DNA of 64,000 bases from a virus (IMGVR_UViG_3300028584_001240); one strand, 5' to 3'. Numbered from the stretch's first letter, positions 170 through 62,496 are shown. The notes: generated by a model not told the origin, from the letters alone. A program made the numbers and translations.

Positions 170-853
170 TTAACACATAGCCATTTCGATAAGAATCGCG
201 TCATCATCAGTAAATAAATTAACTAATTTCAAATAATCACTTTCAGCACTTACATCTATTTCTGGTCTGCCCAATGCATTTAACAGTTTGTTCAATGGAT
301 AGCATTTGTTATTTATAAAATATAAAACGTCTTTAATAATGCCTTTATTTAAACAAAAAGAAGATAAATAGCATTTTGAGTGAAGGCTATTATGAACAAC
401 AAATTGATAATAAATGCTGCCATCATTATAACGAGAGAATGAGGTTTTTTTAACTATATGAAAATCTTTATCACTTCTGTAAGTGATTTCATAAAAACTT
501 CCGTCATAATTAAATACGATGGATCGAACATCGCCCTCTTTGTAAGATATCATTAAAACAGTAAAAAGACGTTTATTATCTATGGTAACCTTTTGAAAAA
601 GGATAGTTGTCGTTTTGTTGGTGAATTTTAATGTAGTGCTTTTTGCTGGCATAACTGTCTTGTCTACCTGATATCCATGCATTTCCATGAATGGGCAAAA
701 TGTTTCTTTATCCATAGAAAAATAAAGATTATTAGACAACAACCTATCAGCACTCAATAAATAATCCAATGATGGAACAAATGCCCGATGATCTGTAATC
801 ATATTATTGGGCAAATGGTTCTCATTCATAATAGGTAATAGATTAGGTAACAT
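170..853 (-). CDS. Hypothetical protein with C-terminal LxxMxx(I/C) motif
   Basis: 227-aa ORF ending LIEMAMC; real start may be the ATG at 829. Confidence 0.7.
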   Translation of the reverse strand: MLPNLLPIMNENHLPNNMITDHRAFVPSLDYLLSADRLLSNNLYFSMDKETFCPFMEMHGYQVDKTVMPAKSTTLKFTNKTTTILFQKVTIDNKRLFTVLMISYKEGDVRSIVFNYDGSFYEITYRSDKDFHIVKKTSFSRYNDGSIYYQFVVHNSLHSKCYLSSFCLNKGIIKDVLYFINNKCYPLNKLLNALGRPEIDVSAESDYLKLVNLFTDDDAILIEMAMC

Positions 854-1007
854 CAGTAGGATTCTTTAAGGCACCTGAGCAGGGAACTTCAAGTTCTACC
901 CAGCCATCACGCGGCAAAGTAGCTTCCTTGACATCATAATCAAGATCTTCGATTTCTACTTCGGTCACAGAAGATTCAGCAATATCAGCCATCAATGATT
1001 TGTTCAT
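843..1007 (-). CDS. Small acidic hypothetical protein
   Basis: ORF MNKSLMADIAES..., part of track ORF 843..1058; start chosen at the internal ATG. Confidence 0.45.
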   Translation of the reverse strand: MNKSLMADIAESSVTEVEIEDLDYDVKEATLPRDGWVELEVPCSGALKNPTDVT

Positions 1008-1146
1008 AGTTTTAAAACTCCATCTGGTTATTAATATGTAGACACTATAATAACACAAGACAACCTAAATTTAAAGAGTTTTTTAAAAAAGATTGACTAT
1101 CTTTGAAGAATGTTGTATTTTATAAATCTTAATTATGAGGCGTATT

Positions 1147-2244
1147 ATGGATGGGAAAATAGTTTTTTGTAAAGATGGAATACTAAGGTTTCAATCAGAC
1201 GTTGATCACAAACGTCTTGTACCTATGCTCGCTATTCAAAAAGCACTAGGGCTGGATGGATATAAGTTCTTTATCCAGAATGTGAAGAAAGTCATTCTAC
1301 TGGAAAAAGGCACAACGTTGGGTTCATTCATGCTTTGCTTAGAGCCTTGGGCAGAAGCGGCTGGTGATATTCTCGCTATGGATGTAGAAGCGTATATCAA
1401 AGAAGCTCGTAAACTATCTGCAGCAAAAAATGCTTTTGACCGAATTGAAGTCAGACGTAACATGTCAGTGAGTCGTGAAGTTAATTTCGGTAAAATGCCA
1501 GAAGGCATGGATTTTATTGAGTGGCTTAACACACCAAAAGAACCTGAGTATCTTAATTTCTTCGAATTAGAATCATCTTTTGACATTAATGGTTACAAAG
1601 ATGGAGATCCAAGCAATTACTCAATGTCTATGACTAGCATTGATGAGCTTAAAAACGTTCCACTTATTCTTAACAGATCGGTTGTCTTCATAGAGTTTGA
1701 AAGCCGTAATGCTGAAGATAAAGGTTTAGTTATCAATAAAGAGACTGTTGGCGTTAATCATTACGATTACATTAACTATGTTGAAAGTTCAAAAGAAGAC
1801 AGCGTAACACTTCTTGAAATCATCCAAGCTGTTTTTAGTGATGGACTATGGAGCTATTCTCCACAAAGTGCTGCGATTCAAAAAGAAATGCTTATTGCTT
1901 CAATGGATGAACTCGATGCTCAACGTGAAGACGATAAAAAAGCTCAAGAAATTGAAGATTCCAAACCAAAGCTAAAAGTGGTTGCTTCCGATGGCGAACT
2001 TGTCAATGATGATGATGAAGAACTTGATGAAAATGGTGAAAAAAGAATGGAAGTTAAAGTGGCTGATGGTGCATTCAGTTCTATTGGTCAACATTATGAA
2101 CGAGAAGGTCAAGAGTGGGAATACATCACCAGTCTAGTGGACAAAAGCAATATTATGATTGGTGTGATAGATGAAGATCCTGTAAAAGATCGCCGTCTAC
2201 GTGGTTGTTTACTGGATGAAGAACCAAAACCAAGAGAGTATTAA
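1147..2244 (+). CDS. Acidic hypothetical protein
   Basis: Long ORF, GAGG RBS before ATG 1147, terminator downstream. Confidence 0.75.
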   Translation: MDGKIVFCKDGILRFQSDVDHKRLVPMLAIQKALGLDGYKFFIQNVKKVILLEKGTTLGSFMLCLEPWAEAAGDILAMDVEAYIKEARKLSAAKNAFDRIEVRRNMSVSREVNFGKMPEGMDFIEWLNTPKEPEYLNFFELESSFDINGYKDGDPSNYSMSMTSIDELKNVPLILNRSVVFIEFESRNAEDKGLVINKETVGVNHYDYINYVESSKEDSVTLLEIIQAVFSDGLWSYSPQSAAIQKEMLIASMDELDAQREDDKKAQEIEDSKPKLKVVASDGELVNDDDEELDENGEKRMEVKVADGAFSSIGQHYEREGQEWEYITSLVDKSNIMIGVIDEDPVKDRRLRGCLLDEEPKPREY

Positions 2245-2249
2245 AAGAT

Positions 2250-2276
2250 AAGAGCAACTAAGGTTGCTCTTTTTTT
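2250..2276. terminator. Bidirectional intrinsic terminator
   Basis: aagagcaac-taag-gttgctctt plus T-run between convergent genes. Confidence 0.8.
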
Positions 2277-2704
2277 ATCTTGTTATGAAGTGTTTTTGCT
2301 GTGGCTAACATGATGACTTCAAGCAAACCTACAATGACTGCAAACGTCTGCGATAAAGATCCTGCCTGCGGCAGAACAAATGGAAGCACTAGACCAATAA
2401 TCAATAACCAATGGTAGAACAAAAAGCTAAAATTAATAGTCAAAGCTTCTGGAATTGAAGACAATAGTGCATATTTTACTTGCTCCGAGGCACTGTCGAT
2501 GGTAGCCATACGATAAATCATCAAAGAAGACATTACCACAAAATAAACAGTCATAATAAGGTAAACACAACGAGCCAAATGGGAGTCATTAAAAAAATAT
2601 AAAAAAGCGGAACCTGAATAAAGTCCTGCGGCAAGATATCCAAGCACATCAGAGATGTATTTCAATTTTTTTTCAAAGACTAGGCTTTCAGTATTTGTCG
2701 TCAT
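2258..2704 (-). CDS. Membrane protein (about 4 TM), Lys-rich C-terminus
   Basis: Hydrophobic segments; ends KIKKEQP; start at MTTNTE. Confidence 0.65.
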   Translation of the reverse strand: MTTNTESLVFEKKLKYISDVLGYLAAGLYSGSAFLYFFNDSHLARCVYLIMTVYFVVMSSLMIYRMATIDSASEQVKYALLSSIPEALTINFSFLFYHWLLIIGLVLPFVLPQAGSLSQTFAVIVGLLEVIMLATAKTLHNKIKKEQP

Positions 2705-3408: not shown

Positions 3409-4200
3409 ATGTGGGTTATTCAAAATAATTTAAACTTTGAAATTGGTATTGACAATATAAAAAACATCTTGAAATCTAACAATATTGAATTGGTCGAAAT
3501 TGATATTTACAAAAATGATGAAAATATGTATTTTAAAGACACTTTTGATAAATTTGACCCTGTGAACAAGAATAACATATTTGTGTTAGGTTCTTATCGA
3601 CTATCAAGAATGGCAACGGAGAAAGGTTTTTCACCCGGTTCATTTTCAAATGACCACTTTAACTATGCCAGTTGGACACAAAATTGGACAAAAGAATACA
3701 TGTTGAATGGTGAATACCTTAAACAAAAGGTAACCGATATCCAAATACCAGAAGATTGGGATTCTGTTTTTGCTCGTCCATTGGAAGATGATAAATTAAT
3801 CACAGGTGGATTATTTAAGAAAGAAGACTTATTGATGGCCCTTGCAACTAAAATAACTGATGCCCATAAAGATAAGTTCTTAATCATCTCTGAAAAGAAA
3901 ACCATATTGGCTGAGTACCGATTATTTGTTATTGATGGAAAGATAGTGACAGGCAGCCTATACAAAATACGTGGACAACTCATCACTTCGGATGCTATTG
4001 ACAAAGAAGCCTTGGCATTTGCACAGAAAATGGTTAATTTGTGGACGCCAAGCCAAGCGTTTGTTCTAGACATTGCTTTAACTGATAAAGGTCCGAAAAT
4101 CATTGAAGTGAATAACATTAGTTCGGCTGGTTTATATAAGTCTGATGTGAATAAGATAGTCACTGAAATGGAATTACTGCTAGAAAAATTAAAATGTTAA
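3409..4200 (+). CDS. ATP-grasp domain protein, R2K-clade-like (DUF4343-like)
   Basis: Motifs FARPLEDDKLITGG, EYRLFVIDGKIVTGSLY, FVLDIA...IIEVNNISSAGLY. Confidence 0.8.
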   Translation: MWVIQNNLNFEIGIDNIKNILKSNNIELVEIDIYKNDENMYFKDTFDKFDPVNKNNIFVLGSYRLSRMATEKGFSPGSFSNDHFNYASWTQNWTKEYMLNGEYLKQKVTDIQIPEDWDSVFARPLEDDKLITGGLFKKEDLLMALATKITDAHKDKFLIISEKKTILAEYRLFVIDGKIVTGSLYKIRGQLITSDAIDKEALAFAQKMVNLWTPSQAFVLDIALTDKGPKIIEVNNISSAGLYKSDVNKIVTEMELLLEKLKC

Positions 4201-4278: not shown

Positions 4279-5115
4279 ATGAAAAATAAATTAGTACTAG
4301 GCATGGCACTATTAGGTGCCTTGACATTTAACGCACAGGCAGAATCAATAGACTTCTCAAAATTAACAGCACAAGACAAAGAAGAAATAGGTAAAATAGC
4401 CAGAGATTACATGGTAGCAAACCCAGAAGTATTGATTGAGATGTCAAATGGATTAAAGGCTAAACAAGAACAAGCACAGGCTTCTCAATTAAAAGATGCC
4501 GCACAAATCGCTATTGAATTACAAGACCAAGTATTAAACGATAAAGACACCCCATTTATCGGGCCTGAAAATGCAAAAATTGCTGTCATTGAATTTTTTG
4601 ACTATAACTGCATCTATTGCTCCAGAGTTGCACCAGAATTAAAAGTGATTATGAAAAACAACCCTGATATAAAGTTTGTATTTAAAGAGATGCCTATTTT
4701 TGAAGATAGCTTCCCAACCTCTAAATTAGCTGCACAATTAGCCAACAAAGTCTTACAAGAAAAAGGTAATGAAGCCTACCTTAAATACCATGATGCTATT
4801 TATGAAACAAAACATTTTGAAGGTGAGTTAACAGTGGCTGATGTTGAAAAGGCTGCAAAACTTGTTGGTGTAGATCCAAAATTAAAACCTAATGAATACA
4901 AAGATAAAATTGATAAGAATATGGAATTGGCTAAAAAAATTGGGATTCATGGAACACCAGCCTTTATATTTATGCCAACCAGTAATCAAAACGACGACAA
5001 TACACTGGTATTAATGCAAGCAGCCAGTAAAGAACAACTGCAAGATATTATCAATCAGTTAAGAGTTAAAATTGGTGATGGTGAAGTTATTGCAGAAACT
5101 CCAGCTAAAAAATAA
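4279..5115 (+). CDS. Periplasmic thioredoxin-fold oxidoreductase, ScsC/DsbA-like
   Basis: Signal peptide, N-terminal helical extension (YMVANPEVL), EFFDYNCIYC CxxC site, GIHGTPAF cis-Pro loop. Confidence 0.88.
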   Translation: MKNKLVLGMALLGALTFNAQAESIDFSKLTAQDKEEIGKIARDYMVANPEVLIEMSNGLKAKQEQAQASQLKDAAQIAIELQDQVLNDKDTPFIGPENAKIAVIEFFDYNCIYCSRVAPELKVIMKNNPDIKFVFKEMPIFEDSFPTSKLAAQLANKVLQEKGNEAYLKYHDAIYETKHFEGELTVADVEKAAKLVGVDPKLKPNEYKDKIDKNMELAKKIGIHGTPAFIFMPTSNQNDDNTLVLMQAASKEQLQDIINQLRVKIGDGEVIAETPAKK

Positions 5116-5160: not shown

Positions 5161-6219
5161 TCATATTGCCATCATTCTATAAAGCAAAATTGATTCGTTT
5201 GTGATCTCTTCCGGTGACACTCCAAGATTGAAAGTAATAAACGTTTTAATCCGATTTGAAATATAATTGTAGATCGCTTCATAACCCAATATATCAACTT
5301 TATCGTGTGTATAATGATCAATTTCAAGATACCTAAGAACATCTGTTTTAAATTGAAAGTAAAGTGTAACACTTAAATTTAAATCCTGTTCATATTCAAA
5401 AACTATGGAATACAAGAGAGTTGGAAGTATAAATTTATAATTAGAGAGATTGGTGTTAAATACCAACTCATAAGCAGCTCGATTATGTTTAAGGTTAGAT
5501 TCAAAACGAAGTAAAGCTTCAATCCTTTTAACTTGTTGCATAAGATTTTCACTAAATGCTCTTGTTAATGGAACAAAAAAATCTTCTGGCGGTCGTGAAA
5601 AACTATGAAAATAGGTTGCACAATCAGCTTTACTGCAATAAGTAAGGTCTTTGTTGTTCAAGTTTTCGTTTCTTATCTCATCAAGTGTTTTTTTATCTCG
5701 CTCATTAAATTCCTGAATGGTCATGTCTTTATCAATAAATAGAGCAAGTTTTTCTAATAATTCAGAATAATGGGCTTCAAATTTTTTGTTATCAATGCGT
5801 GAACTATCCTTCAAAAATAGTGAACTAAAATAAATATCTTCAGGCGTCGTTTTTGCTCTTTTTTCTATTGAAAAATAAAGAACATTTCCAAAAGAAACTT
5901 GCACAAGACCTCTGTCATTGGTGTCAGAAACATCATAAATCTCAATTCTTAACTGTTTGTTACTGATGGTTGAATATTCTGTGTCAACATGATGAAGTAA
6001 ATCATATAACGATGACATTTGTTTTATTTTTGAAATGTTATAATTAGCATGCTCAGGTTTAAAGAGATTCACCATAAATTGATAATCTCGTGGACTTCTA
6101 TTCAGTAAATAAACATTTGATCGACTGGCTCGAATAAAAGAACAATTATCTAAATCATAAAAGGATTTTATCTCTGATAAAAGTAAATCATAAGGTTGTG
6201 TCACTTTGAATTTCTCCAA
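5161..6219 (-). CDS. Hypothetical protein with C-terminal LxxMxxI motif
   Basis: 352-aa ORF, TTG start, ends LYRMMAI. Confidence 0.7.
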   Translation of the reverse strand: MEKFKVTQPYDLLLSEIKSFYDLDNCSFIRASRSNVYLLNRSPRDYQFMVNLFKPEHANYNISKIKQMSSLYDLLHHVDTEYSTISNKQLRIEIYDVSDTNDRGLVQVSFGNVLYFSIEKRAKTTPEDIYFSSLFLKDSSRIDNKKFEAHYSELLEKLALFIDKDMTIQEFNERDKKTLDEIRNENLNNKDLTYCSKADCATYFHSFSRPPEDFFVPLTRAFSENLMQQVKRIEALLRFESNLKHNRAAYELVFNTNLSNYKFILPTLLYSIVFEYEQDLNLSVTLYFQFKTDVLRYLEIDHYTHDKVDILGYEAIYNYISNRIKTFITFNLGVSPEEITNESILLYRMMAI

Positions 6220-6313: not shown

Positions 6314-7498
6314 TCAAGGTTTGAATTTTGGCTTCTTTGCTTGAACAGGAGCCGCCATCAACTTAACATCAATCACATTCAACCCTTTTTTACGGAAGCC
6401 TTCAATTACACGGTCAGTATCATCATAAACAGCTACAACACGTTCCAGTCCAATATATTTTGAAATCCAAGAAGGCTTAATGACATAATCGGGAACTCGG
6501 TTTTCTGGGCTACGCAATTTGATACGGTCATAACAAACACCATAATCTTCCATAGATTTAATTGTTTTGTCCATGATTCTATCTACTCGCCCACTCATCA
6601 ACCAAATTTCGAAACCTTTAGCACGATATTCTTTGGTCAAGTCAATAATGTGTTGAATAGGTGTATCCAAGTGACACAAGTCAAAATAGTTATCCCAATC
6701 TTTCACATCACGGTATTGAGCACGATGTTTCTCATCCAGCAAAGTACCATCAATATCGAATACAACCACGGGTGGCAAGATGATTTCTTTTTTACAATCG
6801 AAGACTTCACGCACACCTTGATAATCAGTTGCATACAATTCATGCTTTTCAACTTTACGAACAGTTTCTTTCAAGTAAGTGCCAAAATCAGCCCACATTT
6901 TTTGCAATGCGTCTACAGGTTCGCCTTCTTTACGCTGCAAGTAACCAGTCAACTCTGGGTAGTATTCAGCCACTGAGCTTTTAGTAAACAGTTCCACATT
7001 ATCTTTCAACAATGCCATAGTTTGACCTAACTGAAAGGCAAAGAACTTGTAGGTTTCAACCAACGACGATTTTTGATAGTCAGCCACATCACGCAAGTCA
7101 ATGCCAGCCAATACATCTAACTTGAACAACATATCAGCAGATTGCAATGCTTTTTTGACTTCTTCACGCTTTTCAGTGCGAGAATGATAAGACAGCAAAC
7201 CACGAACAGTACGAATCATTTTCAATGCATAAGAACGTGGTAAAGCTGCAGTGATTGGGTTCGCGGCGTCTTGTTTGTGCAGAGCATAGGTTGCCAGAAT
7301 AGAGTTGTTACACTCATCCACAGTACCTTTATAGCACCAGTTAACAACACCGTCTTTAACGCTCAAAAGATTGCCGTTCACTTCTTTGTAAGAATCGCAA
7401 AGCTTCTTGGCTTCTTGCATAGTAAGTGGTTCTGGAATGATGATATAGGCATCAATGTCCAAAGAATCTTCTGAGCCGTGTTTGATAACTGGATACAT
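6314..7498 (-). CDS. Nucleotidyltransferase-like domain fused to PNKP-type HAD phosphatase
   Basis: N-terminal HGSEDSLDID (hGS...DxD); C-terminal VFDIDGT, SGR, K and YDD HAD motifs as in the T4 PNK 3'-phosphatase; ends KKPKFKP. Confidence 0.75.
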   Translation of the reverse strand: MYPVIKHGSEDSLDIDAYIIIPEPLTMQEAKKLCDSYKEVNGNLLSVKDGVVNWCYKGTVDECNNSILATYALHKQDAANPITAALPRSYALKMIRTVRGLLSYHSRTEKREEVKKALQSADMLFKLDVLAGIDLRDVADYQKSSLVETYKFFAFQLGQTMALLKDNVELFTKSSVAEYYPELTGYLQRKEGEPVDALQKMWADFGTYLKETVRKVEKHELYATDYQGVREVFDCKKEIILPPVVVFDIDGTLLDEKHRAQYRDVKDWDNYFDLCHLDTPIQHIIDLTKEYRAKGFEIWLMSGRVDRIMDKTIKSMEDYGVCYDRIKLRSPENRVPDYVIKPSWISKYIGLERVVAVYDDTDRVIEGFRKKGLNVIDVKLMAAPVQAKKPKFKP

Positions 7499-8380: not shown

Positions 8381-8409
8381 TTGACTTAAGTGCTTTATGA
8401 GCGTATTAT
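8381..8409 (+). promoter_or_regulatory. sigma70-type promoter
   Basis: TTGACT-17-TATTAT with upstream A-tract, ahead of RBS AGGAG and ATG 8448. Confidence 0.75.
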
Positions 8410-8447
8410 TTGATGTTACATTAAATCAATTAGGAGAAATATTGAAC

Positions 8448-47918: not shown

Positions 47919-47983
47919 AATTAATTTTTCTTAAACTGGATAGTATTATTATACTAAAACTATCAATTAATTACAACCTTAAT

Positions 47984-51137: not shown

Positions 51138-51211
51138 AAGACACCCCAAAAGTTAATCTTAATATTATACCATAATTAAATGCAAAACTGAAGGTTATTT
51201 TGGAAATAAAT

Positions 51212-51835: not shown

Positions 51836-51907
51836 CAAAATATCCTCTAAATAAGTGCCATTATTATACCAAATAACAACAATCCATTCAAGCATTATAA
51901 TACGAAG

Positions 51908-52525: not shown

Positions 52526-52545
52526 AATAACCTCTCTCCGTAATG

Positions 52546-53166
52546 TTAAATTTTTATCATCTGCAGTAAATCAAAATGTTCTTTGGTTATTTTCTCAATA
52601 GGAACATCGAGCGTTTTTAGTTCTTCTGAGGAAACAGACATGAACCTTTCCTTAACATTAAGGATGACAAATTTATTAAGCTCTATTTTATTATAGGTTT
52701 TATCAACAAGCGAGTTAGCAAAATAAGTCACATGGGCATTTGAAAGTGTATCAAAATCAGAACTGTGTTTATCAAAGTAAATATTCACACCACCGTTGTT
52801 AATAAAATAAATATTAGAGTTGCCTTTCGAAAAATAAAAGCTTCTCACTTTAAGGTTCTTTAAAAACAACTTCAAGGAGGGAAGGCTGTCAATATCAACT
52901 TGCTGAGTAAAGATAACAAACCATGTTATGGCTGCAAACATTAAGAATTTAAGAAAGATATACCCCATTGCAAAGGCAAAGAGCAAAGCAAACACTGTGC
53001 TCGTAAAATACGTGTATTCAACTATTGCAGCAATTGCCAACGCAACAGTAATGACAAGACTTTTAATCAAATAGGCATTTGAAAAGTCAGGCGACAGTTT
53101 GTAATTCAATAGCAAGTGCATTGGAAGTGTAATGCAGGCAAACACAACAAATAAGAATAGTGACAT
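52546..53166 (-). CDS. Membrane protein paralog, C-terminal LxxMxxI
   Basis: NIYFINNGGVNIYFD; ends DLLQMIKI. Confidence 0.7.
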   Translation of the reverse strand: MSLFLFVVFACITLPMHLLLNYKLSPDFSNAYLIKSLVITVALAIAAIVEYTYFTSTVFALLFAFAMGYIFLKFLMFAAITWFVIFTQQVDIDSLPSLKLFLKNLKVRSFYFSKGNSNIYFINNGGVNIYFDKHSSDFDTLSNAHVTYFANSLVDKTYNKIELNKFVILNVKERFMSVSSEELKTLDVPIEKITKEHFDLLQMIKI

Positions 53167-53225
53167 AATAAAAAAGCCTCTTTAAAAAGATGGCTTATTT
53201 TAACATAGATAGGTATTGTTTACAA

Positions 53226-53609
53226 TCAATTTCTAGATCCACCAGTAGGCACTAACCAATAACTGCTGTTTTCATAATTAACTTTGTAAACGGCTTTTTT
53301 AACGCCTCTGAATGACTCAGGGAATTCGTCAGTGATAGGGAATATAACAAGGTCACCCGTTTTTCTTACGTGTTCTCTTTCAACAATTTTACACTTTGAC
53401 TGCTTAATAGAATTACCTAATATCAAAGCTTGATCACCTTTACCACTGGCAGTAAATCCCATTTTTACAAGCCTAGTAGCTTCTTCTTGTTGGTAACAAA
53501 TAACTTCCTTACCTTTTATTGCATGTAAATTATACATAGTGGTATTGACCTGATTACTTGAACAACCAGCCAATAAGACTAAGAGAGATCCGCCGATTAT
53601 ATTTTTCAT
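53226..53609 (-). CDS. Lipoprotein
   Basis: Lipobox LLAGC. Confidence 0.75.
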   Translation of the reverse strand: MKNIIGGSLLVLLAGCSSNQVNTTMYNLHAIKGKEVICYQQEEATRLVKMGFTASGKGDQALILGNSIKQSKCKIVEREHVRKTGDLVIFPITDEFPESFRGVKKAVYKVNYENSSYWLVPTGGSRN

Positions 53610-53881
53610 TCCATTAATAATATAGTTGTTTTATTCATATTATCATTATTGCTATAAAATAAAAGAGATAGTTAAAAAATAAAATCAACCATTAAATATT
53701 GAAAAGGATAAAATATAGTGTAAATTTTAAGAATGCAACTGATATTTGCACGCTTGATAGTCTTAGGCACAATTCGTTTGAATATTATCATTAAAACCAA
53801 AATCACACAATTCCAACCAAAAAAGTCGGTTGGCGTTTGCTATCACGACATAATCGACTTATATAATTGGAGGAATTTACA

Positions 53882-54712
53882 ATGAACTACATTACTATTG
53901 CCGATCTAAAAAAACAGGCAAAGAAAGAAAGAAGAAATAACAACTCAATCAAAAATCATGCTGACTCATTAAATATTGTTGCAAAGCAAAACAATTTCGA
54001 TAGCTGGTCAGATCTCATTGATAAATCGGTCATCTTAAAAAAAGAAAACATACTCACACAATCAGAAAGATTAAGTATGTTAAAAACCTTTATCAATGAC
54101 GCCACTGTTCATCTAAACGAGTTAACAACTATTTTTAAAATAGAAAATCATGATGTCTTGTCTATAAAAATGACAAAATACTTTCTAGATTCAATAGAGG
54201 AATATAGCAATGGAGATACGCTTTGGAGAGAAAGGGCTATCTTGTGGCTAGACAGCTTGTGTTTCATTTTTGTTAAGTCTGACATTCCAAAAACATTTAA
54301 AGGATTTAGAAGTATGATGAGCTTTACTGATCTATTAAAAGTCATTTATCGAAACCATTTACAACACGAAGAACAGGTTGAAAATTTATTCGATATGATG
54401 TATTATGAGTATGATTTAGAAGAAATTAAAGAACCTAGCTACGATGTTTTACAACAATATGGATATTGCTCAATGCAGGGAATACGCAAATTTGGATTTA
54501 CTGAAAATTTGTTCAAATTTATTAATCTAAACGAAAATATAACTAAAGATCATGTAAAAAATATGATACTGCATAATACAGAATTATTTACAATGACCTT
54601 TTATGCTAAATCTAATATGTTAGATCCTCATCAAATTTTTAAAAGGTATAAAGATTCCTTTAACAATAAAGCTGATTTTAAAGTTGCATTAAAAAATGAT
54701 TTATATCCATAA
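53882..54712 (+). CDS. Protein with N-terminal 'glyoxalase superfamily'-type helical domain
   Basis: LKKQAKKER...HADSLNIVAKQNNFDSW pattern; GGAGG RBS. Confidence 0.55.
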   Translation: MNYITIADLKKQAKKERRNNNSIKNHADSLNIVAKQNNFDSWSDLIDKSVILKKENILTQSERLSMLKTFINDATVHLNELTTIFKIENHDVLSIKMTKYFLDSIEEYSNGDTLWRERAILWLDSLCFIFVKSDIPKTFKGFRSMMSFTDLLKVIYRNHLQHEEQVENLFDMMYYEYDLEEIKEPSYDVLQQYGYCSMQGIRKFGFTENLFKFINLNENITKDHVKNMILHNTELFTMTFYAKSNMLDPHQIFKRYKDSFNNKADFKVALKNDLYP

Positions 54713-54759
54713 GATTAATTTAAAGCCACTTGTGTGGCTTTTTTATCCACTGAAAATTA

Positions 54760-55416
54760 TCAAATAGCAAACATTTCTTTCGTCATCATTGTGTTCTTTA
54801 AGTCATCGACACGTTCATCAAACGTCTTTTGTTGACCATCATGCTCAAAAAATTCATCAATCTTTGCAATGTAAGCGGCATAATCATTAATCAAGTATTC
54901 ACCAAACTGTTTAGCGGTGATTTCAGCACCAGCATAGTTCACACGGCCATCAGCATGAACGATAACATACGATAGTCGTTCACTCCCTGTGGTGGATACC
55001 CAAAAGCCTACACTTGGCTTATACTCACTCTGGAAGTCTTCTAGACGCCCTTCAAAAGCATGAATAACAAAATCAATGACCTTGATACGAGAAATAGTTT
55101 GGTTATCATTGCTCACAACATCATACTTCAAACCGTTAATGTCACGAATGGCATTAAAAATAAAATCAACAACCTTCTGGTTTTTAATGAAGTTTTTTGT
55201 CAAGCTCTGGCTATTGGATGAAATTGAATAGTGGAATACGTCTTTACCAGCACCAATCAAAGGACGGCGAGACACTTCCAACAAATCAGAACCACACATG
55301 AAGTAAGATTTTGCTTTGCCTTGTGTGTAGCCGATTTTTTCATAGCCATAGTTGGTCATCAGAAAATCACCGATTTTCTTTTGTGTGGCCTTGTCAATCT
55401 TGCTGATTTCTTTCAT
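54760..55416 (-). CDS. Hypothetical protein, C-terminal xxxMxxI
   Basis: AGGTG RBS before MKEISK; ends TKEMFAI. Confidence 0.7.
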   Translation of the reverse strand: MKEISKIDKATQKKIGDFLMTNYGYEKIGYTQGKAKSYFMCGSDLLEVSRRPLIGAGKDVFHYSISSNSQSLTKNFIKNQKVVDFIFNAIRDINGLKYDVVSNDNQTISRIKVIDFVIHAFEGRLEDFQSEYKPSVGFWVSTTGSERLSYVIVHADGRVNYAGAEITAKQFGEYLINDYAAYIAKIDEFFEHDGQQKTFDERVDDLKNTMMTKEMFAI

Positions 55417-55521
55417 CAATGCACCTTTTAGTATCATTTTAGATGGTGTGATTATACCATAATGCTTTTTCTTAGGCAATAAAAAAGTCGCCTGAAAGCG
55501 ACCTTTTTTGTAACTCAAACC

Positions 55522-57006
55522 TTAGTAGGCTTGTTGTGAACGCGGTTTGTAGCGAATTGTTGCACCGTATTCTTTTGGAATAATCACTTCGGTGTTGACC
55601 ACATAAATGGTATCACAGAAGTTCGGCACGCCAAAACCATCACCAGTGTAACCGTCAGTGAACATAATGAAAAGCTTCGGTTTGATACGCTTTTCACGCA
55701 TGAACGCCCAATTCGCAAGGAAAGATGTGCCACCACCACCAAAGAACTCGTATTTAGGCAAACTACGAATGTTTGAAGGCGTATACTCTTTCAAGCTCTG
55801 AGGATACACTTTACCATCAAATGTCCAAATGCGAAGCTTAAAGTCACGCTTGTATTGCTGAGTAATACCGGCAATCTCTGACAAGAAGTCTGCCATTTCC
55901 ACTTCACCAATGGAACCGGAACAGTCGATTGCAATGTGAATGTCCACTTTTTCAATTTGACGGAAACCCGGCATAATGAATTCGCCATCGAAAGAACGGC
56001 GTGACGGACGGCTCCAGTCGTCGCTCTCGCGGAACAATGAAGTAATACGAGTGCGGATGTATTGACGCCAGTTAATCTCTGGACGACGCATACGCTCAAT
56101 CAAACGCTCCAAGTCAGCAGGCATTGAGCCAGCGTCCGAACCATTGGTGGAACGGCGAGCTTCTTCGTTATCCTTGTGCTGGTCGTAGGCGTTAATCATA
56201 CGATCTTTGAAGTCACGCATAATTTCTTCACGTTCTTCTGGTGTCAAATCACGAGGTTTGAAGTCAGCACCACCTTCGCTCTTTTCTGGCCCTTCGCCTT
56301 CACCTTGACCTTCGCCATCACCATTAGGGTCAGCTTTACGTTTTTGGTTGCCTTCTTCCGCAACACCTGTACCAACCGAGTGGTCATCAAGTGTAGTGCC
56401 GTTCTGGCCCGCGTTAGGGTCTTTCAACAAGTCTTTGTAAATTTCTTCCATGCTCATGTCGTCATACTTTTTATCGTAGAACAATTTGATAACTTCTTTA
56501 CGAATCAAGGTACCCACTTTGCAAGTAACCAAGTCGCGGTTTACACAGAAGTCAGCGGCAATGTTAGCCAATTTCGCATGAAGGCGAATTTTTTCATCAA
56601 ACGTCATATCATTATCGGCATAGTGTTCGTAGTCGTTCACGGTCGCAATAGCACGGCCAAAGTGGTCGTAAGCAACGTGAAGGATTTCGTGACCATACAC
56701 GAACTGAATTTCTTCTGGCTCAAGCAACAGGAAGAAACCTACGTTGTAGTAGAAGTGCTTGCCATCGGTAGCAGCCGTTACAAGCCATTTGGACGCATCC
56801 ACAAGCTCAAGGTTCATCGCCATGATACCGAAGAACGGTTGACGCATAAGAAAGTTCGAACGTGCCTGATAGATTTTGTCTTCAACAATAGCAATTTCTT
56901 CCGGTGTATACGGCTTAGTACGTTCCTTTACGGCCTGCAAAATGGGGGAAAGTTCTTCACCCTTTTCGCTGACTTCATCTTTCTTTTTTCCTTTGAGAAT
57001 TGACAT
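55522..57006 (-). CDS. DUF2201-type putative metallopeptidase plus vWA domain protein
   Basis: AATDG, HEILH (HExxH), NIAADFCVN, IAIDCSGSI MIDAS, GGGTSF, FTDG. Confidence 0.88.
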   Translation of the reverse strand: MSILKGKKKDEVSEKGEELSPILQAVKERTKPYTPEEIAIVEDKIYQARSNFLMRQPFFGIMAMNLELVDASKWLVTAATDGKHFYYNVGFFLLLEPEEIQFVYGHEILHVAYDHFGRAIATVNDYEHYADNDMTFDEKIRLHAKLANIAADFCVNRDLVTCKVGTLIRKEVIKLFYDKKYDDMSMEEIYKDLLKDPNAGQNGTTLDDHSVGTGVAEEGNQKRKADPNGDGEGQGEGEGPEKSEGGADFKPRDLTPEEREEIMRDFKDRMINAYDQHKDNEEARRSTNGSDAGSMPADLERLIERMRRPEINWRQYIRTRITSLFRESDDWSRPSRRSFDGEFIMPGFRQIEKVDIHIAIDCSGSIGEVEMADFLSEIAGITQQYKRDFKLRIWTFDGKVYPQSLKEYTPSNIRSLPKYEFFGGGGTSFLANWAFMREKRIKPKLFIMFTDGYTGDGFGVPNFCDTIYVVNTEVIIPKEYGATIRYKPRSQQAY

Positions 57007-57090
57007 ATATTTATTTCCTCATGTTCTGTTTTAGTGAAACTATTATACCAAAAAAATTATTAGAGAGCAATCATTATTTTAAAATAATTG

Positions 57091-57576
57091 CTATATTTCT
57101 CGAAGTTTGTAAAGAGTTGGATTTTCATCTATCAGATGCTTATATTTTTTAAACGAATCTAAAATAAGTCTTGATTGTGGTGTGTTCAAGCTTGTATGAA
57201 CCCTACATTTACGCACCATACAAATAACCGCTGCTTCAAAAAATTGAAAATCTGTAAAATTACTATAAATAAAATCAATGTAATTACAAATGGCAAGATT
57301 AAAGAACTCTCGATTATTGGCTGATGTGCCAGTATCAATTGCCGATTTAAACTCAATCAATTCTTTTTCAAAAAGATGAATAAAATGAATAGGGAAAACG
57401 TTACGATCAACCAATGCACCACGACCTTTCAGAATAAGCCTCAAATGCGTATTCTCGACTAATTTATCAATGTAATCAAAAAAAGCCGCTGTGTTATTAG
57501 TAAATAATTTGACTGATATATGAGTTTGAACATATGGTACATTAGGCAAATAAGACTGATTAACGGAAAGACTCAT
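57091..57576 (-). CDS. Hypothetical protein
   Basis: AGGAG RBS; ends LYKLREI (variant of the C-terminal motif). Confidence 0.6.
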   Translation of the reverse strand: MSLSVNQSYLPNVPYVQTHISVKLFTNNTAAFFDYIDKLVENTHLRLILKGRGALVDRNVFPIHFIHLFEKELIEFKSAIDTGTSANNREFFNLAICNYIDFIYSNFTDFQFFEAAVICMVRKCRVHTSLNTPQSRLILDSFKKYKHLIDENPTLYKLREI

Positions 57577-57639
57577 TTAAAAAACTCCTTTATTTTGAAA
57601 GTAATGTATTATAACACAATTGCCAAAAAGAAGCAATAA

Positions 57640-57663
57640 AAAAAGCCCCTTTCGGGGCTTTGG
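57640..57663 (-). terminator. Intrinsic terminator after the AAA gene
   Basis: aaaaagcccc-tttc-ggggcttt. Confidence 0.75.
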
Positions 57664-57690
57664 CTTTCGCCAGTTACACACTCGACTGTG

Positions 57691-59025
57691 TTAGTTTTTA
57701 AGGCGAGCCGCGTTGAACTCGGTAGCCACAAGGTCAAACACTGCTTTTTTCATGTGGTTAGGCATTGGCATAACCTTGTAACGCTTCAACATCACGGTGA
57801 TGATACCGAAGACGAACAACTCACGAGCAAAGTGTTCCTTGGCGAACAAGATGTAGTTTTCCATGCTTGTCACGTAGGACTTCAACACTTTTTCATACTC
57901 AGCAGTCTTATCACCGCTTTCTTTCTTAACTTCTTCCAACTTCGTTTTCATTTCTTTCAGTGCGTGAGAGCAATCGTTCGCAATGAAGTATTGTGCGGAA
58001 GTCTTAGCCTTCATGTTCGCAACAGTCATCTTCTTACCATCAAGAATGTCGCGGGCTTTTGGCAAGTCCATACCTTCCTTCACGAAACCAGCAAACTCTA
58101 CCGCAATACCGCTACCAACACAAGATGCAGCGATTACAGAAATGTCGTTTTCGTTGATTTTATCGTCTTCTTCGTAGACGTTAAATTCTTCGCTTTCTTC
58201 TGCAAGCGTTTTGTGTGTAGCAGTCGCTTGATGCTCACCGTAAGCTGCGAACAACGCCTTGCTCAACATTTCCCATGAACGTGGGGTTGCGAACGCTTTT
58301 TCGTCGGAAGCCAACAGGCGGTCAACGTTAAAGTCTTGCAACTTGCTACCGTTCGCACCGATTGACAGGTAAGCCAACACGTAAGGGTGCATACCAGCCT
58401 CAGAAGCGAAGTTCAACCATTGTTCGGTGTTCACGTCCATCAAGTAGTGACGGAAACGGTTAGCCAAAGGCAACGGCATGGAGTTAGTCACACCACCATC
58501 GGATTCCAAGTTACCAGCCGCAAAAACCACGTCCTGAGAACCGAGTTCGAAGCAACCGATGCGACGGTCGTTGATGAACTGGTAAGCAGCAGCCATTGTC
58601 GCAGGTGAACCGGAGTTCAATTCGTCGAAGAAGTAAGCCGTTGGCTTCTTGTATTTATCCCATTGTTCTTTCGCACGGCGAAGGAAGTCAGGCATTGCCC
58701 AAGTTACGGTAGTTTCTTTACCGTTGGAGAACATGAGTTCGCCTTTGTCATTGGTTTTTTGTTTACCGTCATCACCCATTACTGGAACAGCGATAACTTT
58801 TTCATCTTTTGCTGGCAGACCACGAAGGTCAACGCTTTCGATTTGAGACAAGCGAATGTCTTCAAAGTGGAAACCCATTTTCTCAACAAGAGCTTGCAGG
58901 ATGCGAGACTTACCGATACCCGGATTACCCCAAACGAAGAATGGCGTCTGAGAGTGGATGCAGTTCAGTGCATGTTTACGCAGTGCTTTTGGGGAAACTT
59001 TAATCATTGTGCTGTTAGTAGTCAT
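57691..59025 (-). CDS. MoxR/dynein-related AAA+ ATPase
   Basis: Walker A GNPGIGKS, DIRLSQ..VDLRGLP, Walker B FFDELN, AAGN, PLANRF, TPRSW. Confidence 0.9.
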   Translation of the reverse strand: MTTNSTMIKVSPKALRKHALNCIHSQTPFFVWGNPGIGKSRILQALVEKMGFHFEDIRLSQIESVDLRGLPAKDEKVIAVPVMGDDGKQKTNDKGELMFSNGKETTVTWAMPDFLRRAKEQWDKYKKPTAYFFDELNSGSPATMAAAYQFINDRRIGCFELGSQDVVFAAGNLESDGGVTNSMPLPLANRFRHYLMDVNTEQWLNFASEAGMHPYVLAYLSIGANGSKLQDFNVDRLLASDEKAFATPRSWEMLSKALFAAYGEHQATATHKTLAEESEEFNVYEEDDKINENDISVIAASCVGSGIAVEFAGFVKEGMDLPKARDILDGKKMTVANMKAKTSAQYFIANDCSHALKEMKTKLEEVKKESGDKTAEYEKVLKSYVTSMENYILFAKEHFARELFVFGIITVMLKRYKVMPMPNHMKKAVFDLVATEFNAARLKN

Positions 59026-59056
59026 TCTGTGAATCTCCTATCGAGTGTGTTTAGTT

Positions 59057-59365
59057 AGTATATCAAAGTTTATTTCTTTTTACAACAAGTTTTTTCGTTT
59101 TTCCTTGATTAAGTCGGACTTTACTTCTAATCCGTCTCTCTCGTTTGTGTGTCTATTATAGTCTATCTGGCTACCCATCGTCAAGCTTTTTTTTCATTTC
59201 GTTCAACTTTAATTTCTTTCAAGTTGTTCGTTGCTTTCGATGTGTAATCTTAACTCATTTCGTCATTCGGTGCAAGCTTTATTTTAAACTGTGTTCAACT
59301 TCGTTTTCTAAGCTGTTCATCGTTTCAAGGTGGCTAGTATATGCTAAATGTGGTCGTTAGGTCAA
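59057..59365 (-). promoter_or_regulatory. Array of four tandem sigma70 promoters
   Basis: Minus strand: TTGACC-18-TATACT (59365..59336), TTGCAC-17-TAAGAT (59275..59247), TTGACG-18-TATAAT (59184..59155), TTGTAA-17-TATACT (59085..59057). Confidence 0.75.
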
Positions 59366-59443
59366 GCACTAATTTCAATTATTTTAAAACTTTTTAGCTG
59401 AAACGATTAAGCACTGATTAGGGCACTGAAATGCCCAACCAGA

Positions 59444-59920
59444 TTAAGCTACTAAAGGAAGATAAGCAATTTTACTAGCAACAAATGCTTCAAAACTATC
59501 CAGAACAATAGTCTGTTCATTTAATAGGATAGAGGTTTTCGTTAATACATCAAAAGCATCTGCTGGAGTAATACGGTTACTACGCAAATAATCACCAGCC
59601 GCCACAATGCGATCACTGGCAACAAACGTAACAACAGTGCAAGAGCCACACAAATCATCTTGACCTTCATTAAACTTAGCGGACGGCAAAGTACTAATAG
59701 AAGAAAGAGCCAAATACAGTTCTTCCAGATCTTTGTGATTACCACCCTGCAAGATTACTTCTGTTTCTGACGTGTTAACCCATTCAGAAAAAAGAGCATC
59801 TGCTGCTGGTGTCATTGTTGCTTTATTTGCCCACAAACGATTAAGTCCGTGACAAACCTGTGGTGTGACATTGCTGCCACGAATATAGAAATTGAGAATA
59901 CTGTATCTTTTGGATTTCAT
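59444..59920 (-). CDS. Putative peptidyl-tRNA hydrolase II-like protein
   Basis: Q.CHG, EW...EVILQGG...L..L, F.E...L....T pattern of phage PTH2-like proteins. Confidence 0.45.
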   Translation of the reverse strand: MKSKRYSILNFYIRGSNVTPQVCHGLNRLWANKATMTPAADALFSEWVNTSETEVILQGGNHKDLEELYLALSSISTLPSAKFNEGQDDLCGSCTVVTFVASDRIVAAGDYLRSNRITPADAFDVLTKTSILLNEQTIVLDSFEAFVASKIAYLPLVA

Positions 59921-60076
59921 GATAACACCTCCTATTTCAAATCATTACGCCAGATTAACAGAAACGGAAAAATAAGTCTACAAATATTTTCAAATTTATC
60001 TATTTTTATGGCCTTGATTTCTTTTCTGCTTTCATGTACTATGGAAGAAATTCTGAAAGATTAAAAGGAGCGGCAC

Positions 60077-60301
60077 ATGTACATCTGTTTATGTAATGGT
60101 TACAAAACATCGGATTTGAAAAGAGATGTTGCCAATAATAAGACCGTCAAGGATATTATTGCTGAGAACAACATTGATGCCGGATGTAAGAAGTGTTGCA
60201 AAATCCTTAAAGCAGAATACAAGAGTTGTCTTGAGTCTGTTGTTGGAACGACATATATTGAAATCAAGGAAGATATTCTAGAGCTAGCCGTGGCGGTTTG
60301 A
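60077..60301 (+). CDS. Bfd-like [2Fe-2S] ferredoxin
   Basis: MYICLCNG...CKKC. Confidence 0.8.
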   Translation: MYICLCNGYKTSDLKRDVANNKTVKDIIAENNIDAGCKKCCKILKAEYKSCLESVVGTTYIEIKEDILELAVAV

Positions 60302-60348
60302 TTCTAGATTTTAATTTGGTATAATAATACTATGATAAGGAGATTGGT

Positions 60349-60765
60349 ATGTTAGGTAATCAAAAGCTTGAAATGCCCGAAAGAAAGTTTGTGAAACACC
60401 CTGAAAGTATCCAGATAATTGTAGAAGAGTTAGCTGAGCAGGATGATATCTCACCGATAAGTCATGAAACCTGTCATGGCCTCATATTTAATTATACAAG
60501 TTATCTTCAACAAAATAAAAAAGTCAGAATAGATATAAAATTAGACGATATGATGTTTAGTGGTAATTCTGTAGTGACCAGTTGTCGAAAAGTTAACAGA
60601 GGTTATGAAGTGAAGGTTGAGTTTTTATCAAGTTGCGAAGAGTTTAAAGTCAAGATGGCATTGCAAGTGTGTCAAATTAAAGATTTTCTAATGTCAAAAC
60701 AACAATGTCAAAATGAAAATGAAACAGCACTTAAATGGATTAATTCAAATGCTGCTAAGTTCTAA
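60349..60765 (+). CDS. Degenerate PilZ-like domain protein
   Basis: RKFVKHP, SC...GYEVKVEF, FKVKM..QVCQI, W...NAAKF; c-di-GMP motifs RxxxR and DxSxxG not intact. Confidence 0.6.
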   Translation: MLGNQKLEMPERKFVKHPESIQIIVEELAEQDDISPISHETCHGLIFNYTSYLQQNKKVRIDIKLDDMMFSGNSVVTSCRKVNRGYEVKVEFLSSCEEFKVKMALQVCQIKDFLMSKQQCQNENETALKWINSNAAKF

Positions 60766-60774
60766 AAATACCAA

Positions 60775-61005
60775 TTAAGAAATATACAAATCAAAACCTA
60801 CTTCTTCATGTTCCAGAGTTTCTAAAAACCCTGTAATCGCCTTCTTAGCTTCTTCATTATGATCAAAGTTCTTTACAAAAGTATTATTAATAAATAATCG
60901 CCCCTCTTTCACACTGATGTCTATATCATCAAAGCGATCTATCGTCATTACAAATGTGTCACCACAAAAAACATCATCATTTTCTAATACTAAATTTGTC
61001 GTCAT
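60775..61005 (-). CDS. Small acidic hypothetical protein
   Basis: 76 aa, AGGAG RBS. Confidence 0.55.
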   Translation of the reverse strand: MTTNLVLENDDVFCGDTFVMTIDRFDDIDISVKEGRLFINNTFVKNFDHNEEAKKAITGFLETLEHEEVGFDLYIS

Positions 61006-61098
61006 TTTACTTCTCCTTTAAACTATGTATAGTATATAATAGAATATAATAAAATCAACAGTTTTATGCGTTTTTCGTCAATTGGAGGAATAAAAAAA

Positions 61099-61482
61099 AT
61101 GTTATTGAAATACCGTTTGGAATTGATACTTATTGTGTTAATAGGAATGCTAATGCACGCTAACCATATTGTCCTCACTTGTCTCTTTTTAGGATTAGTA
61201 TTTATTCAATTAGCAATGAGCATTGTGATCTACAAAAACTTGATTGGAAATCCAAAAAGACTAGAATCATTACTCAACGAGCAACTAGAATTCAAAGCAA
61301 AAAAGAAAACAACCAGAGAGAAGCTGGTAAAGTTTGAATTTTGGATTGTATTGATGGCTATATTAGGAACAGCCATCATCACAAAGAGCATCTTTATTAT
61401 CATTTTCTCCATCCTTGTTGTTTCATTAGAATTAGGGAAAATATACATCTTCAAAAAACTACAAAAAGAAAGCCTTCAATGA
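61099..61482 (+). CDS. Four-TM membrane protein
   Basis: GGAGG RBS; hydrophobic segments. Confidence 0.6.
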   Translation: MLLKYRLELILIVLIGMLMHANHIVLTCLFLGLVFIQLAMSIVIYKNLIGNPKRLESLLNEQLEFKAKKKTTREKLVKFEFWIVLMAILGTAIITKSIFIIIFSILVVSLELGKIYIFKKLQKESLQ

Positions 61483-61485
61483 AGG

Positions 61486-61860
61486 CTATTTTTTTAAAAC
61501 AGTTTTATTTCGTATCACTGTTGTGCTGTCAACAATGACTGACTGCAGATTCATCATAACATCTTCTAACTTCGCGGCAAGATTACGACTATTCTCTGTA
61601 TCATTAATCACATTGTTAATATGCTTCAATGACAAATTGATTTCTTCCTGAATATTGCTAATCACTTCAAAGATCTCTTTCACAGCACTTTCAGTATTTT
61701 GAGATAAATTTCTAACTTCCTGTGCTACCACTGAGAAACCACGACCAGCATCACCGGCTCTTGCTGCTTCGATTGCCGCATTCAATGCCAACAAGTTTGT
61801 TTGAACTGAAATCTTGTTAATCGTATCAACAATGGAGTTTATTTTATTATAAAGTGGAAG
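61486..61860 (-). CDS. Isolated MCP signalling-hairpin domain (mini-MCP or remnant; start unclear)
   Basis: [43 protein letters not shown]; frame is open to 61860 with no ATG. Confidence 0.7.
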
Positions 61861-62496
61861 TTATATTTTAATCATATCTAAGACAGTAATAATATCTTCA
61901 TCAACATGGGTGACTTCATATCCCAATAATTGAGAGATAATGTCCTTATAAGAATTTAACATAGGAAGAATCATTTTATCCACTTTTTTATGATTAACAC
62001 AAATGACAATCATGGACTGATGCTCAAAATTACGACCATCTAACTCAGCAATTTCATAGGAAGCTTCAACATCAGATAAGTAGGCACAAAAATGAAAAGT
62101 CGTATATCCTGTTTTACCGCCTTTGCCTCTCAACACAAATGAAATACTTTCAATGTCTAACAGGCTTGTATAGTGAAGGTTCAGTTCAATATCAGTGGAA
62201 ACTGACGTGTCAAAAAATTCTATATCCAAATTTAATAATTTTGAATACTTTAAAATAATTTTTTTCATTTTTTTTATGAAAGCAGTATGCTTAAATTGTT
62301 TAACATGCTGTAAGAAGAAATCCTTTAATTCTTCTGCATTATCGAGATTGCCAGTTGAAACAGCATCATCTAGTTTATTATTTTCCCTGAGCACAAAGTG
62401 CGGACTAAAATGAGTTTGTTTAGGTGTTAGTTCAGTCCCTTCAAGAAAGTTAATGAAAGACTGTTTAAATAATTTACGTTTTTCAAAATAATCCAT
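61861..62496 (-). CDS. Hypothetical protein, C-terminal VxxMxxI
   Basis: GGAG RBS; ends TVLDMIKI. Confidence 0.7.
   Translation of the reverse strand: MDYFEKRKLFKQSFINFLEGTELTPKQTHFSPHFVLRENNKLDDAVSTGNLDNAEELKDFFLQHVKQFKHTAFIKKMKKIILKYSKLLNLDIEFFDTSVSTDIELNLHYTSLLDIESISFVLRGKGGKTGYTTFHFCAYLSDVEASYEIAELDGRNFEHQSMIVICVNHKKVDKMILPMLNSYKDIISQLLGYEVTHVDEDIITVLDMIKI

Follow-up and report, generated by a model that had tools for sequence, protein, structure and literature searches.

Tail carriers in the window

We analysed a window of 64,000 nucleotides (the whole stretch of DNA under study, referred to below as the 64-kb window; G+C content 32%) from the viral contig IMGVR_UViG_3300028584_001240. 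Its gene set, obtained by greedily picking the longest non-overlapping open reading frames (ORFs), comprises 82 ORFs, and many of their products end in one and the same short peptide, here called the tail. A sequence-only reading of the window had listed 24 such carriers, with Met (20 ORFs), Ala (three) or Leu (one) at the fourth position from the C-terminus (position −4, the last residue being −1), and all 24 are present with these endings. Two relatives were used for comparison: G001 (IMGVR_UViG_3300031133_000383), a 437-kb IMG/VR contig of 551 ORFs that is syntenic with window positions 42–64 kb and of which locus L001 is a part, and L002, a locus on a 1.84-Mb ENA contig that is syntenic with window positions 3–28 kb. 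The carriers of the window are as follows; Met stands at −4 unless another residue is named, and h denotes a hydrophobic residue.

170–853, minus strand: singleton, ends LIEMAMC; no Pfam match
5161–6219, minus strand: singleton, ends LLYRMMAI; G001 ortholog 52% identical, sharing 10 of the 14 tail residues
7585–8307, minus strand: singleton, ends LLEMMMF
12921–18646, minus strand: F1, a tandem array of six paralogs (12921–13682, 13682–14710, 14710–15774, 15755–16594, 16720–17562 and 17876–18646), all ending L-h-x-M-x-x-I
18663–19058, minus strand: short F1-related carrier of 131 amino acids (aa), ends DLHNMIYI; linked to F1 by hhalign (E 0.0034) and by the F1 profile (E 4.5e-15)
19373–20323, minus strand: singleton, ends LFRMSTI
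24357–26644, plus strand: F2, a paralog pair (24357–25493 and 25490–26644) ending VYEMIHI and LYKMVKI; missing from the syntenic L002
28915–30376, minus strand: F3, a paralog pair (28915–29619 and 29660–30376) with Ala at −4, likewise in the G001 ortholog
36440–37201, plus strand: carrier with Ala at −4, ends LYFAYLI; the G001 ortholog ends LLEAYRV
43454–44011, minus strand: carrier, ends LIDMCFI; L001/G001 ortholog 30% identical
44166–44879, minus strand: carrier, ends ILAMLVF; ortholog 34% identical, sharing 9 of the 14 tail residues
51212–53166, minus strand: F4 paralogs (51212–51895, 51908–52525 and 52546–53166) with two to three N-terminal membrane-like segments; missing from L001
54760–55518, minus strand: carrier directly downstream of the AAA+ and metallopeptidase-VWA genes; position kept in G001
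57091–57576, minus strand: weak carrier with Leu at −4, ends LYKLREI; lies between the AAA+ and VWA genes, not in L001
61861–62496, minus strand: carrier with 14 orthologs (48–93% identity), all ending VLDM-x-K-I/V

The last residue is Ile in 20 of the 23 Met or Ala carriers, and Cys or Phe in the remainder. When the strict pattern [LIVMF]xxMxx[IVFLC] was required at the C-terminus, it was found in 18 of the 82 ORFs against 0.16 expected (binomial p ~1e-31), the expectation resting on 18,600 positions inside these proteins, where the pattern occurs at a rate of 0.19%. Admitting Ala or Leu at −4 brings the number of tail-bearing ORFs to 24 of 82. Met makes up 3% of all residues and occupies −4 in 21 window ORFs, one of which (41313) has it by chance, without the remaining motif. 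Across the six reading frames, the pattern (with Tyr also allowed in last place) precedes 40 of the 4,529 stop codons in the window, about half of them belonging to real carriers, and the composition-matched background rate is about 0.5%. The motif sits at a constant distance from the stop: of 48 F1 relatives, only two keep it with one extra residue behind it.

The ending [LIV]-x-x-M-x-x-I-stop described in the sequence-only reading is present, but conservation reaches further, over about 14 residues, with the consensus h-[TSD]-x-[DEN]-x-h-x-[LVI]-h-[EK]-M-h-x-I-COOH. Enriched in this stretch are a hydrophobic residue and a Thr, Ser or Asp cap at −14/−13, Asp, Asn or Glu at −11, and hydrophobic residues at −9, −7, −6, −4, −3 and −1. 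Leu is encoded in the tails by CTT, TTG, CTA, TTA or CTG and Ile by ATT, ATA or ATC, all three stop codons (TAA, TAG and TGA) are used, and the 30 nucleotides 3' of the stop have zero information content. Because codons and stops vary and the DNA behind the stop is uninformative, we conclude, in agreement with the earlier proposal, that selection acts on the peptide and not on the DNA.

Other origins of the shared ending were considered and rejected. The variable wobble positions and stops, together with the zero information after the stop, rule out a repeat or recombination site at the DNA level. An overlapping start codon as the cause of Met at −4 is also ruled out: the overlap within the arrays is a single base at the stop (TAATG), which is not the Met codon, and singletons bearing the tail also speak against it. 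A composition artefact is ruled out by both nulls (internal positions and six-frame stops) and by the jumbo phage XacN1, which is described below.

The tail was then sought in relatives with a position weight matrix of 14 positions, built from window carriers only with one vote per family, and scored on the 551 G001 ORFs, which had not been used to build it. Fifty-nine ORFs scored above the 99.9th percentile of internal windows (0.55 expected) and 92 above the 99th percentile (5.5 expected); Met stands at −4 in 102 ORFs, and the carriers are distributed along the entire contig. The tail-bearing share of ORFs thus ranges from 11 to 29% between G001 and the window, and members of carrier families were also present on contigs of 0.5, 0.77 and 1.86 Mb. 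The Xanthomonas jumbo phage XacN1, a cultured phage of 384 kb with counterparts to just 22 of the 551 G001 ORFs, has no tail family: Met is not in excess at −4, and one of 515 ORFs gives a strict match. We conclude from this that the tail is specific to the lineage of the window and G001. Within the window, the R2K ATP-grasp protein ends ...IVTEMELLLEKLKC and scores just over the matrix threshold, but it has Lys at −4 and was taken as a chance near-match, not as a carrier.

Carrier proteins and the predicted tail helix

BLAST grouped the 24 window carriers into the arrays F1 (six members), F2, F3 and F4 plus 11 singletons, and profile comparison alone added one protein, 18663, to F1. The sequence-only reading had counted roughly a dozen separate families or singletons once paralogs were allowed for; the enrichment does outlast the collapse of paralogs, with four arrays and 10 or 11 singletons by BLAST. 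When the last 15 residues were removed, hhalign gave no link across families except that between 18663 and F1. F1 has only 48 relatives among 1.84 billion representatives, and its profile, enlarged with these 48, matched no other carrier even at E 10. The 83 carriers of the window and G001 fell into 60 BLAST clusters after trimming of the tail, and in shuffle-normalised local alignments of cluster representatives the mean z was 0.21 between carriers, compared with 0.24 between carriers and size-matched non-carriers. Met occupies −4 in 93% of these 60 clusters under cluster weighting.

Known domains were absent from the carriers. Among 20 window carriers, Pfam gave nothing at E ≤ 0.01 except one sub-threshold Snu56 match (E 0.008); the 57 G001 carriers had no Pfam match at E ≤ 0.001 and no PHROG match. 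In contrast, half of 30 tested window non-carriers have clear domains, and the 74 largest G001 non-carriers match 56 Pfam and 43 PHROG families. The observation that no recognisable enzyme bears the tail was thus extended to 77 carriers, none of which has a Pfam domain. Searches for language-model look-alikes returned none for 61861 and, for 25490, unnamed clusters and one label of GapS4b at 26%.

Carriers have a narrow range of lengths (median 254 aa, 5th–95th percentile 188–369) compared to other ORFs (median 189 aa, 82–492), and they turn over fast. A reciprocal best match in G001 exists for only 8 of the 24 window carriers but for 38 of 58 other genes (p 0.014). The median identity between orthologs is 33% for carriers and 51% for other genes (p 0.004). 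The tail was nevertheless retained in all eight reciprocal best matches. Seven columns in the last 80 residues of F1 are invariant or nearly so, and four of these belong to the tail. Whole arrays have been gained or lost, F4 having no counterpart in L001 and F2 none in L002; since the 1.84-Mb relative lacks the F2 pair, this pair represents a recent insertion or loss. The variant with Ala at −4 is a stable subclass, because orthologs inherit the Ala. RNA-library contigs (four runs) mapped to 43000–62999 covered mainly the AAA+ and VWA genes, at 90–99% likeness, and left the carriers mostly uncovered; carriers of relatives are too diverged to map, so this gap carries no weight.

Carrier bodies differ in architecture, from soluble repeat proteins to proteins with two or three membrane segments, and 12 of the 83 carriers (14%) consist of one to three N-terminal membrane-like segments, about 100 soluble residues and the tail. 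The families had been called unrelated. Their bodies do fall into 60 BLAST clusters, but it is not established that unrelated families were fitted with a portable sorting tag, and the carriers form a coherent class of orphan proteins.

Structures were modelled with AlphaFold2 (AF2) for two families. The F1 alignment (13682–14710) gave a model with a predicted local distance difference test score (pLDDT) of 82, comprising two N-terminal beta-alpha-beta-beta-beta modules, helices, a six-stranded sheet, a long helix (residues 304–323), a six-residue loop and the tail helix (330–341). The N-terminal half of F1 is a duplicated unit, with a second profile match at residues 7–97. For 61861 and its 14 orthologs (pLDDT 69), the model has a poor N-terminus followed by two helices, a five-stranded sheet, a helix (178–191), a loop and the tail helix (200–208). 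The sequence-only reading had proposed a short C-terminal helix, and both models indeed predict one at the exact C-terminus, with a block pLDDT of 82–88 in both families. At the end of both chains, a sheet is followed by a long helix, a short loop and the tail helix, a likeness judged by order and not by superposition; the structural neighbours of the two models differ and are weak.

No convincing known fold emerged for the carriers. Foldseek of the F1 model against the PDB gave nothing at E ≤ 0.001, and a shape search of the ESM Atlas reached a template-modelling (TM) score of at most 0.46. The top 11 PDB rows, and most of the top 50, were bacterial beta sliding clamps (E 0.01, TM 0.09), which we note as a lead only.

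On a helical wheel, the cluster-weighted profile resolves into two hydrophobic stripes that together make about 220 degrees of the helix surface hydrophobic. The stripe at −9/−6/−3 is generic and takes Leu, Ile, Phe, Tyr or Val, with −3 itself varied (Ile, Leu or Tyr). The stripe at −7/−4/−1 is fixed: 86% of clusters have Leu, Val or Ile at −7, 93% have Met at −4 and 57% have Ile at −1, where the stripe meets the free carboxylate; Phe is the last residue in 7% of clusters.

Genomic setting, neighbouring genes and a second tail class

Recognisable products of the window are enzymes or chaperones only; the list below also includes one protein of unknown function.

3409–4200: R2K ATP-grasp protein
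4279–5115: ScsC/DsbA-like periplasmic thiol-disulfide oxidoreductase whose N-terminus resembles a signal peptide; conserved in L002
8397–10844: protein of 815 aa, of unknown function; conserved in L002 and G001, matches PHROG 33734
24357–28598 (L002 1–1234): DnaK, together with the F2 carrier pair (24357–26644), which in the window lies between the CYTH and dnaK genes
37212–39300 and 46941–49033: four DEDDh_C (Pol III epsilon-like C-terminal) exonuclease paralogs of 325–349 aa, in two tandem pairs
55522–59025, minus strand: AAA+ ATPase adjoining a DUF2201 metallopeptidase/VWA protein
Further products of the window: PNKP-type HAD phosphatase, ADP-ribosylglycohydrolase and NADAR protein

The DEDDh_C exonucleases number four in G001 as well. 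The product of 8397–10844 shares 45% identity with proteins of two Xanthomonas jumbo phages, XacN1 and Xoo-sp13. The DnaK of the window is of gammaproteobacterial type, about 70% identical to DnaK genes in records labelled Pseudomonas and Salmonella, and its gene has no adjacent grpE or dnaJ. Near-identical DNA was found in food, freshwater, groundwater and peat metagenomes (10 studies). We conclude that the window belongs to a giant, uncultured phage-like element that occurs widely and encodes a DnaK of this type.

For a phage, G001 carries an unusual set of genes, among them MFS transporters, an MCP signalling-domain protein, a TolC-like OEP protein, an M3 peptidase, NAPRTase, GatA/GatB, class I and class II tRNA synthetases, NAD-dependent DNA ligases, a T4-type RNA ligase and copies of TnpB/IS605. 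Its longest ORF encodes only 778 aa. Terminase_6N, family B polymerase and beta-clamp had no match in the 437 kb of G001, which is possibly a fragment; the clamp profiles PF00712, PF02768 and PF09116 likewise gave none in this possible fragment, and the PF09116 control was silent in every genome.

A string of three genes, encoding the AAA+ ATPase, the metallopeptidase-VWA protein and a tail carrier, is conserved between the window (54760–59025, minus strand) and G001 (159692–163367), the carrier directly following the AAA+/VWA pair in both; the window alone has one more gene in this string, the weak carrier 57091, which separates the AAA+ gene from the VWA gene. These two genes are the best conserved of this part of the window, at 72% (AAA+) and 77% (metallopeptidase-VWA) identity to their L001 orthologs. 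Homologs of the AAA+ protein occur in several hundred phage records, the longest matches being to Rak2-like jumbo phages and a 469-kb Sinorhizobium phage. The metallopeptidase-VWA protein combines a HEILH zinc-peptidase motif, an acidic and Gly-rich linker and a VWA domain with an intact metal-ion-dependent adhesion site (MIDAS; DCSGS...T...D).

A second, Lys-rich C-terminal tail, ending ...K-x-K-[FIMS]-K-P(S)-COOH, was observed on six of the 82 window ORFs (2258–2782, 6314–7498, 31291–32496, 34394–35554, 37212–38216 and 50577–51149; 0.19 expected) and on 17 of the 551 G001 ORFs (1.7 expected). It is borne by recognisable enzymes (PNKP-HAD, DEDDh_C and NADAR) and some unknowns, and it never co-occurs with the Met tail on one protein.

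Possible roles of the tail

The tail is best read as the one part that stays constant in a class of accessory proteins that evolve fast, have greatly expanded and are specific to this lineage of giant phage-like elements. Whether it also serves as the docking handle of this hyper-variable arsenal, read by one common partner, is a question to which we would answer yes with slightly less than even confidence. The reading as a docking element arises because a generic face, a sequence-specific face and a fixed chain end combine in one peptide. Under such a mechanism, a hydrophobic residue and an N-cap (Thr, Ser or Asp at −13; Asp, Asn or Glu at −11) would start a 12-residue alpha-helix that ends at the C-terminus. 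The generic stripe −9/−6/−3 probably packs on the last domain of the carrier itself, and the fixed stripe (Leu/Val/Ile −7, Met −4, Ile −1), beside the free carboxylate, would form the docking surface. We infer that this stripe faces a partner and that the carriers act as adaptors: the same conserved receptor would accept every carrier, and the variable bodies would give differing specificities. The receptor could be a host hub, such as a clamp or an AAA+ unfoldase or protease, or a protein of the element itself.

For the last option, the AAA+/HExxH-peptidase-VWA pair at 55522–59025 is a candidate reader, which we regard as a lead, and its MIDAS metal could in principle coordinate a terminal carboxylate. 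When the 55 C-terminal residues of 54760 were co-folded with the metallopeptidase-VWA protein, Mg and Zn, the scores were 0.44, 0.00 and 0.00; run without controls, this trial is evidence neither way. Were tail and dedicated reader to form a pair, they would make up an undescribed protein-addressing system of giant phages, in which the Leu/Met/Ile stripe and carboxylate are read on hundreds of hyper-variable proteins, to localise, remodel or destroy the carriers or their cargo. We think this extended scheme rather doubtful, at about one chance in a few.

Several results weigh against a docking handle. No receptor was found; a helix that is confidently modelled in the monomer fits packing on the carrier's own domain as well; with about 220 degrees of its surface hydrophobic, a large part of the helix must be buried; a portable tag should sometimes sit on known domains, which none of the 77 carriers has; and carrier lengths are as narrow as expected for a single architecture. 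Taken together, the missing domains, the narrow lengths and the common order of the final elements in both models mean that the carriers may belong to a single, very diverged superfamily, with the tail as its best-kept structural element. The main rival builds on these data: one ancestral domain of sheet, long helix and tail helix, its last helix packing into the core, would have persisted while the bodies diverged past recognition by sequence, and no reader would exist. It accounts for the absence of Pfam (0 of 77) and PHROG (0 of 57) matches in carriers, compared with 56 Pfam families in 74 large non-carriers, for the length distribution and for the common, confidently modelled end of both AF2 models. 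Yet a core helix normally tolerates exchanges among Leu, Ile, Val, Phe and Met, whereas here Met is kept in 93% of clusters next to a stripe that is free; packing needs no chain end exactly three residues past the Met; and in some carriers, which are membrane proteins, the soluble part is only about 100 residues long. On balance we judge a purely structural tail unlikely. Self-association, in which C-terminal helix hairpins would zip through the Leu/Met/Ile stripe into homo- or hetero-oligomers, draws on the helix-loop-helix ending of both models and on the two hydrophobic stripes, one of them identical across families as mutual compatibility demands; helix zippers, however, need no fixed chain end, and we give this explanation little credence.

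Other explanations place the tail in protein turnover or transport. As a timing degron, the non-polar C-terminus and free carboxylate would deliver takeover proteins to an AAA+ protease (host ClpXP, ClpAP or FtsH, or a machine of the element) for joint clearance. C-terminal degrons of bacteria include those of ssrA and MuA, and the strict C-terminal position and non-polar last residues of the tail fit their general logic; membrane-anchored carriers would be within reach of FtsH, and an AAA+ gene and a HExxH-peptidase/VWA gene adjoin carriers. Known degrons are nevertheless short and disordered, whereas the tail is modelled as a well-formed, N-capped and largely hydrophobic helix (block pLDDT 82–88) without sequence likeness to LAA-type tags, which makes a degron improbable, if slightly less so than self-association. 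Export through a machinery like a type IV secretion system (T4SS), or packaging into the capsid interior for injection with the DNA, would suit extensive orphan arsenals that evolve fast and have a terminal signal in common, of which Dot/Icm effectors, T4 internal proteins and encapsulin cargo are analogues, and also the gain and loss of carriers between relatives. Both options had been raised in the sequence-only reading and lose ground to the 12 of 83 carriers with one to three N-terminal membrane-like segments, a poor fit to a capsid interior or to most T4SS substrates. Moreover, 11–29% of ORFs would be very many for cargo, and known T4SS signals are loose and disordered. We consider such a signal the least probable of these explanations.

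Known systems offer partial parallels to the docking handle; literature searches found no described phage counterpart of the tail. In T4 and RB69, several different proteins dock on one hub, the sliding clamp, through a C-terminal motif (PMC6212786). RB69 gp43 ends ...KKASLFDMFDF, as read from the RB69 genome, which places Leu at −7, an acidic residue (Asp) at −5, Met at −4 and a hydrophobic residue at −1, in the same register as the tail, and makes it the closest verified sequence analogue. The T4 and RB69 motifs, however, rely on Phe at −3 and −1 (LDFLF type), whereas the tail accepts any hydrophobic residue at −3 and favours Ile at −1 (57% of clusters, Phe in 7%), so that it lacks the Phe that the clamp pocket requires. 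RB69 gp55 ends ...SLDFLYEDDN, out of register with the tail, and the carriers, which have no known domains, do not look like replication or transcription proteins and number dozens to hundreds.

The ankyrin/PRANC proteins of poxviruses are large, fast-evolving viral families in which variable bodies share a constant C-terminal helical module that plugs into one host machine. The carriers resemble them in joining variable bodies to such a module, but PRANC is a domain of about 40–50 residues that binds eukaryotic Skp1, whereas the tail has 14 residues and a bacterial setting, and no PRANC or F-box profile matched the 57 G001 carriers (Pfam E ≤ 0.001) or 20 more (E ≤ 0.01). The C-terminal ClpX-binding peptide of SspB and the ssrA tag are short peptides at the exact C-terminus, each recognised by a single machine; for ssrA, the free carboxylate is important. 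Position, brevity and the single reader are points of likeness; these peptides, however, are disordered and follow flexible linkers, whereas the tail is modelled as a capped amphipathic helix after a short loop, ends M-h-x-I instead of in a disordered LAA-like sequence and has no sequence similarity to them. The Dot/Icm (type IVB) system handles hundreds of orphan, paralog-rich effectors through a C-terminal signal with Glu and hydrophobic residues near −3/−4. Many orphan, paralog-rich proteins with a C-terminal signal are found here too, but the Dot/Icm signal is loose, statistical and disordered (an E-block and small polar residues), the tail is a near-invariant helix of fixed register with 93% Met at −4, and the element of the window looks phage-like. 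These three systems (poxvirus ankyrin/PRANC, AAA+ adaptor tails and Dot/Icm) are nearest in logic, and none fits as a family.

Hypervariable parasite families defined by a conserved C-terminal domain are a further parallel; one is the Tpr multigene family of Theileria, conserved only in its C-terminal part (PMC10730637). Tpr differs from the tail in being eukaryotic and in having a membrane-associated domain far longer than 14 residues. Capsid-targeted or encapsulin-type cargo would be expected to consist of soluble proteins inside a particle; 12 of the 83 carriers have membrane-like segments, and the cultured phage XacN1 lacks the tail family.

If the tail is a docking handle, finding its one receptor would provide a functional entry to much of the unannotated gene content of these giant phage-like genomes (11–29% of ORFs here) and would reveal how a rapidly evolving accessory arsenal is organised, and the 14-residue tag would be short enough to serve as a portable tool. 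If it is only the last helix of one fold, it would define, by a searchable signature, a new, very large and fast-evolving protein superfamily.

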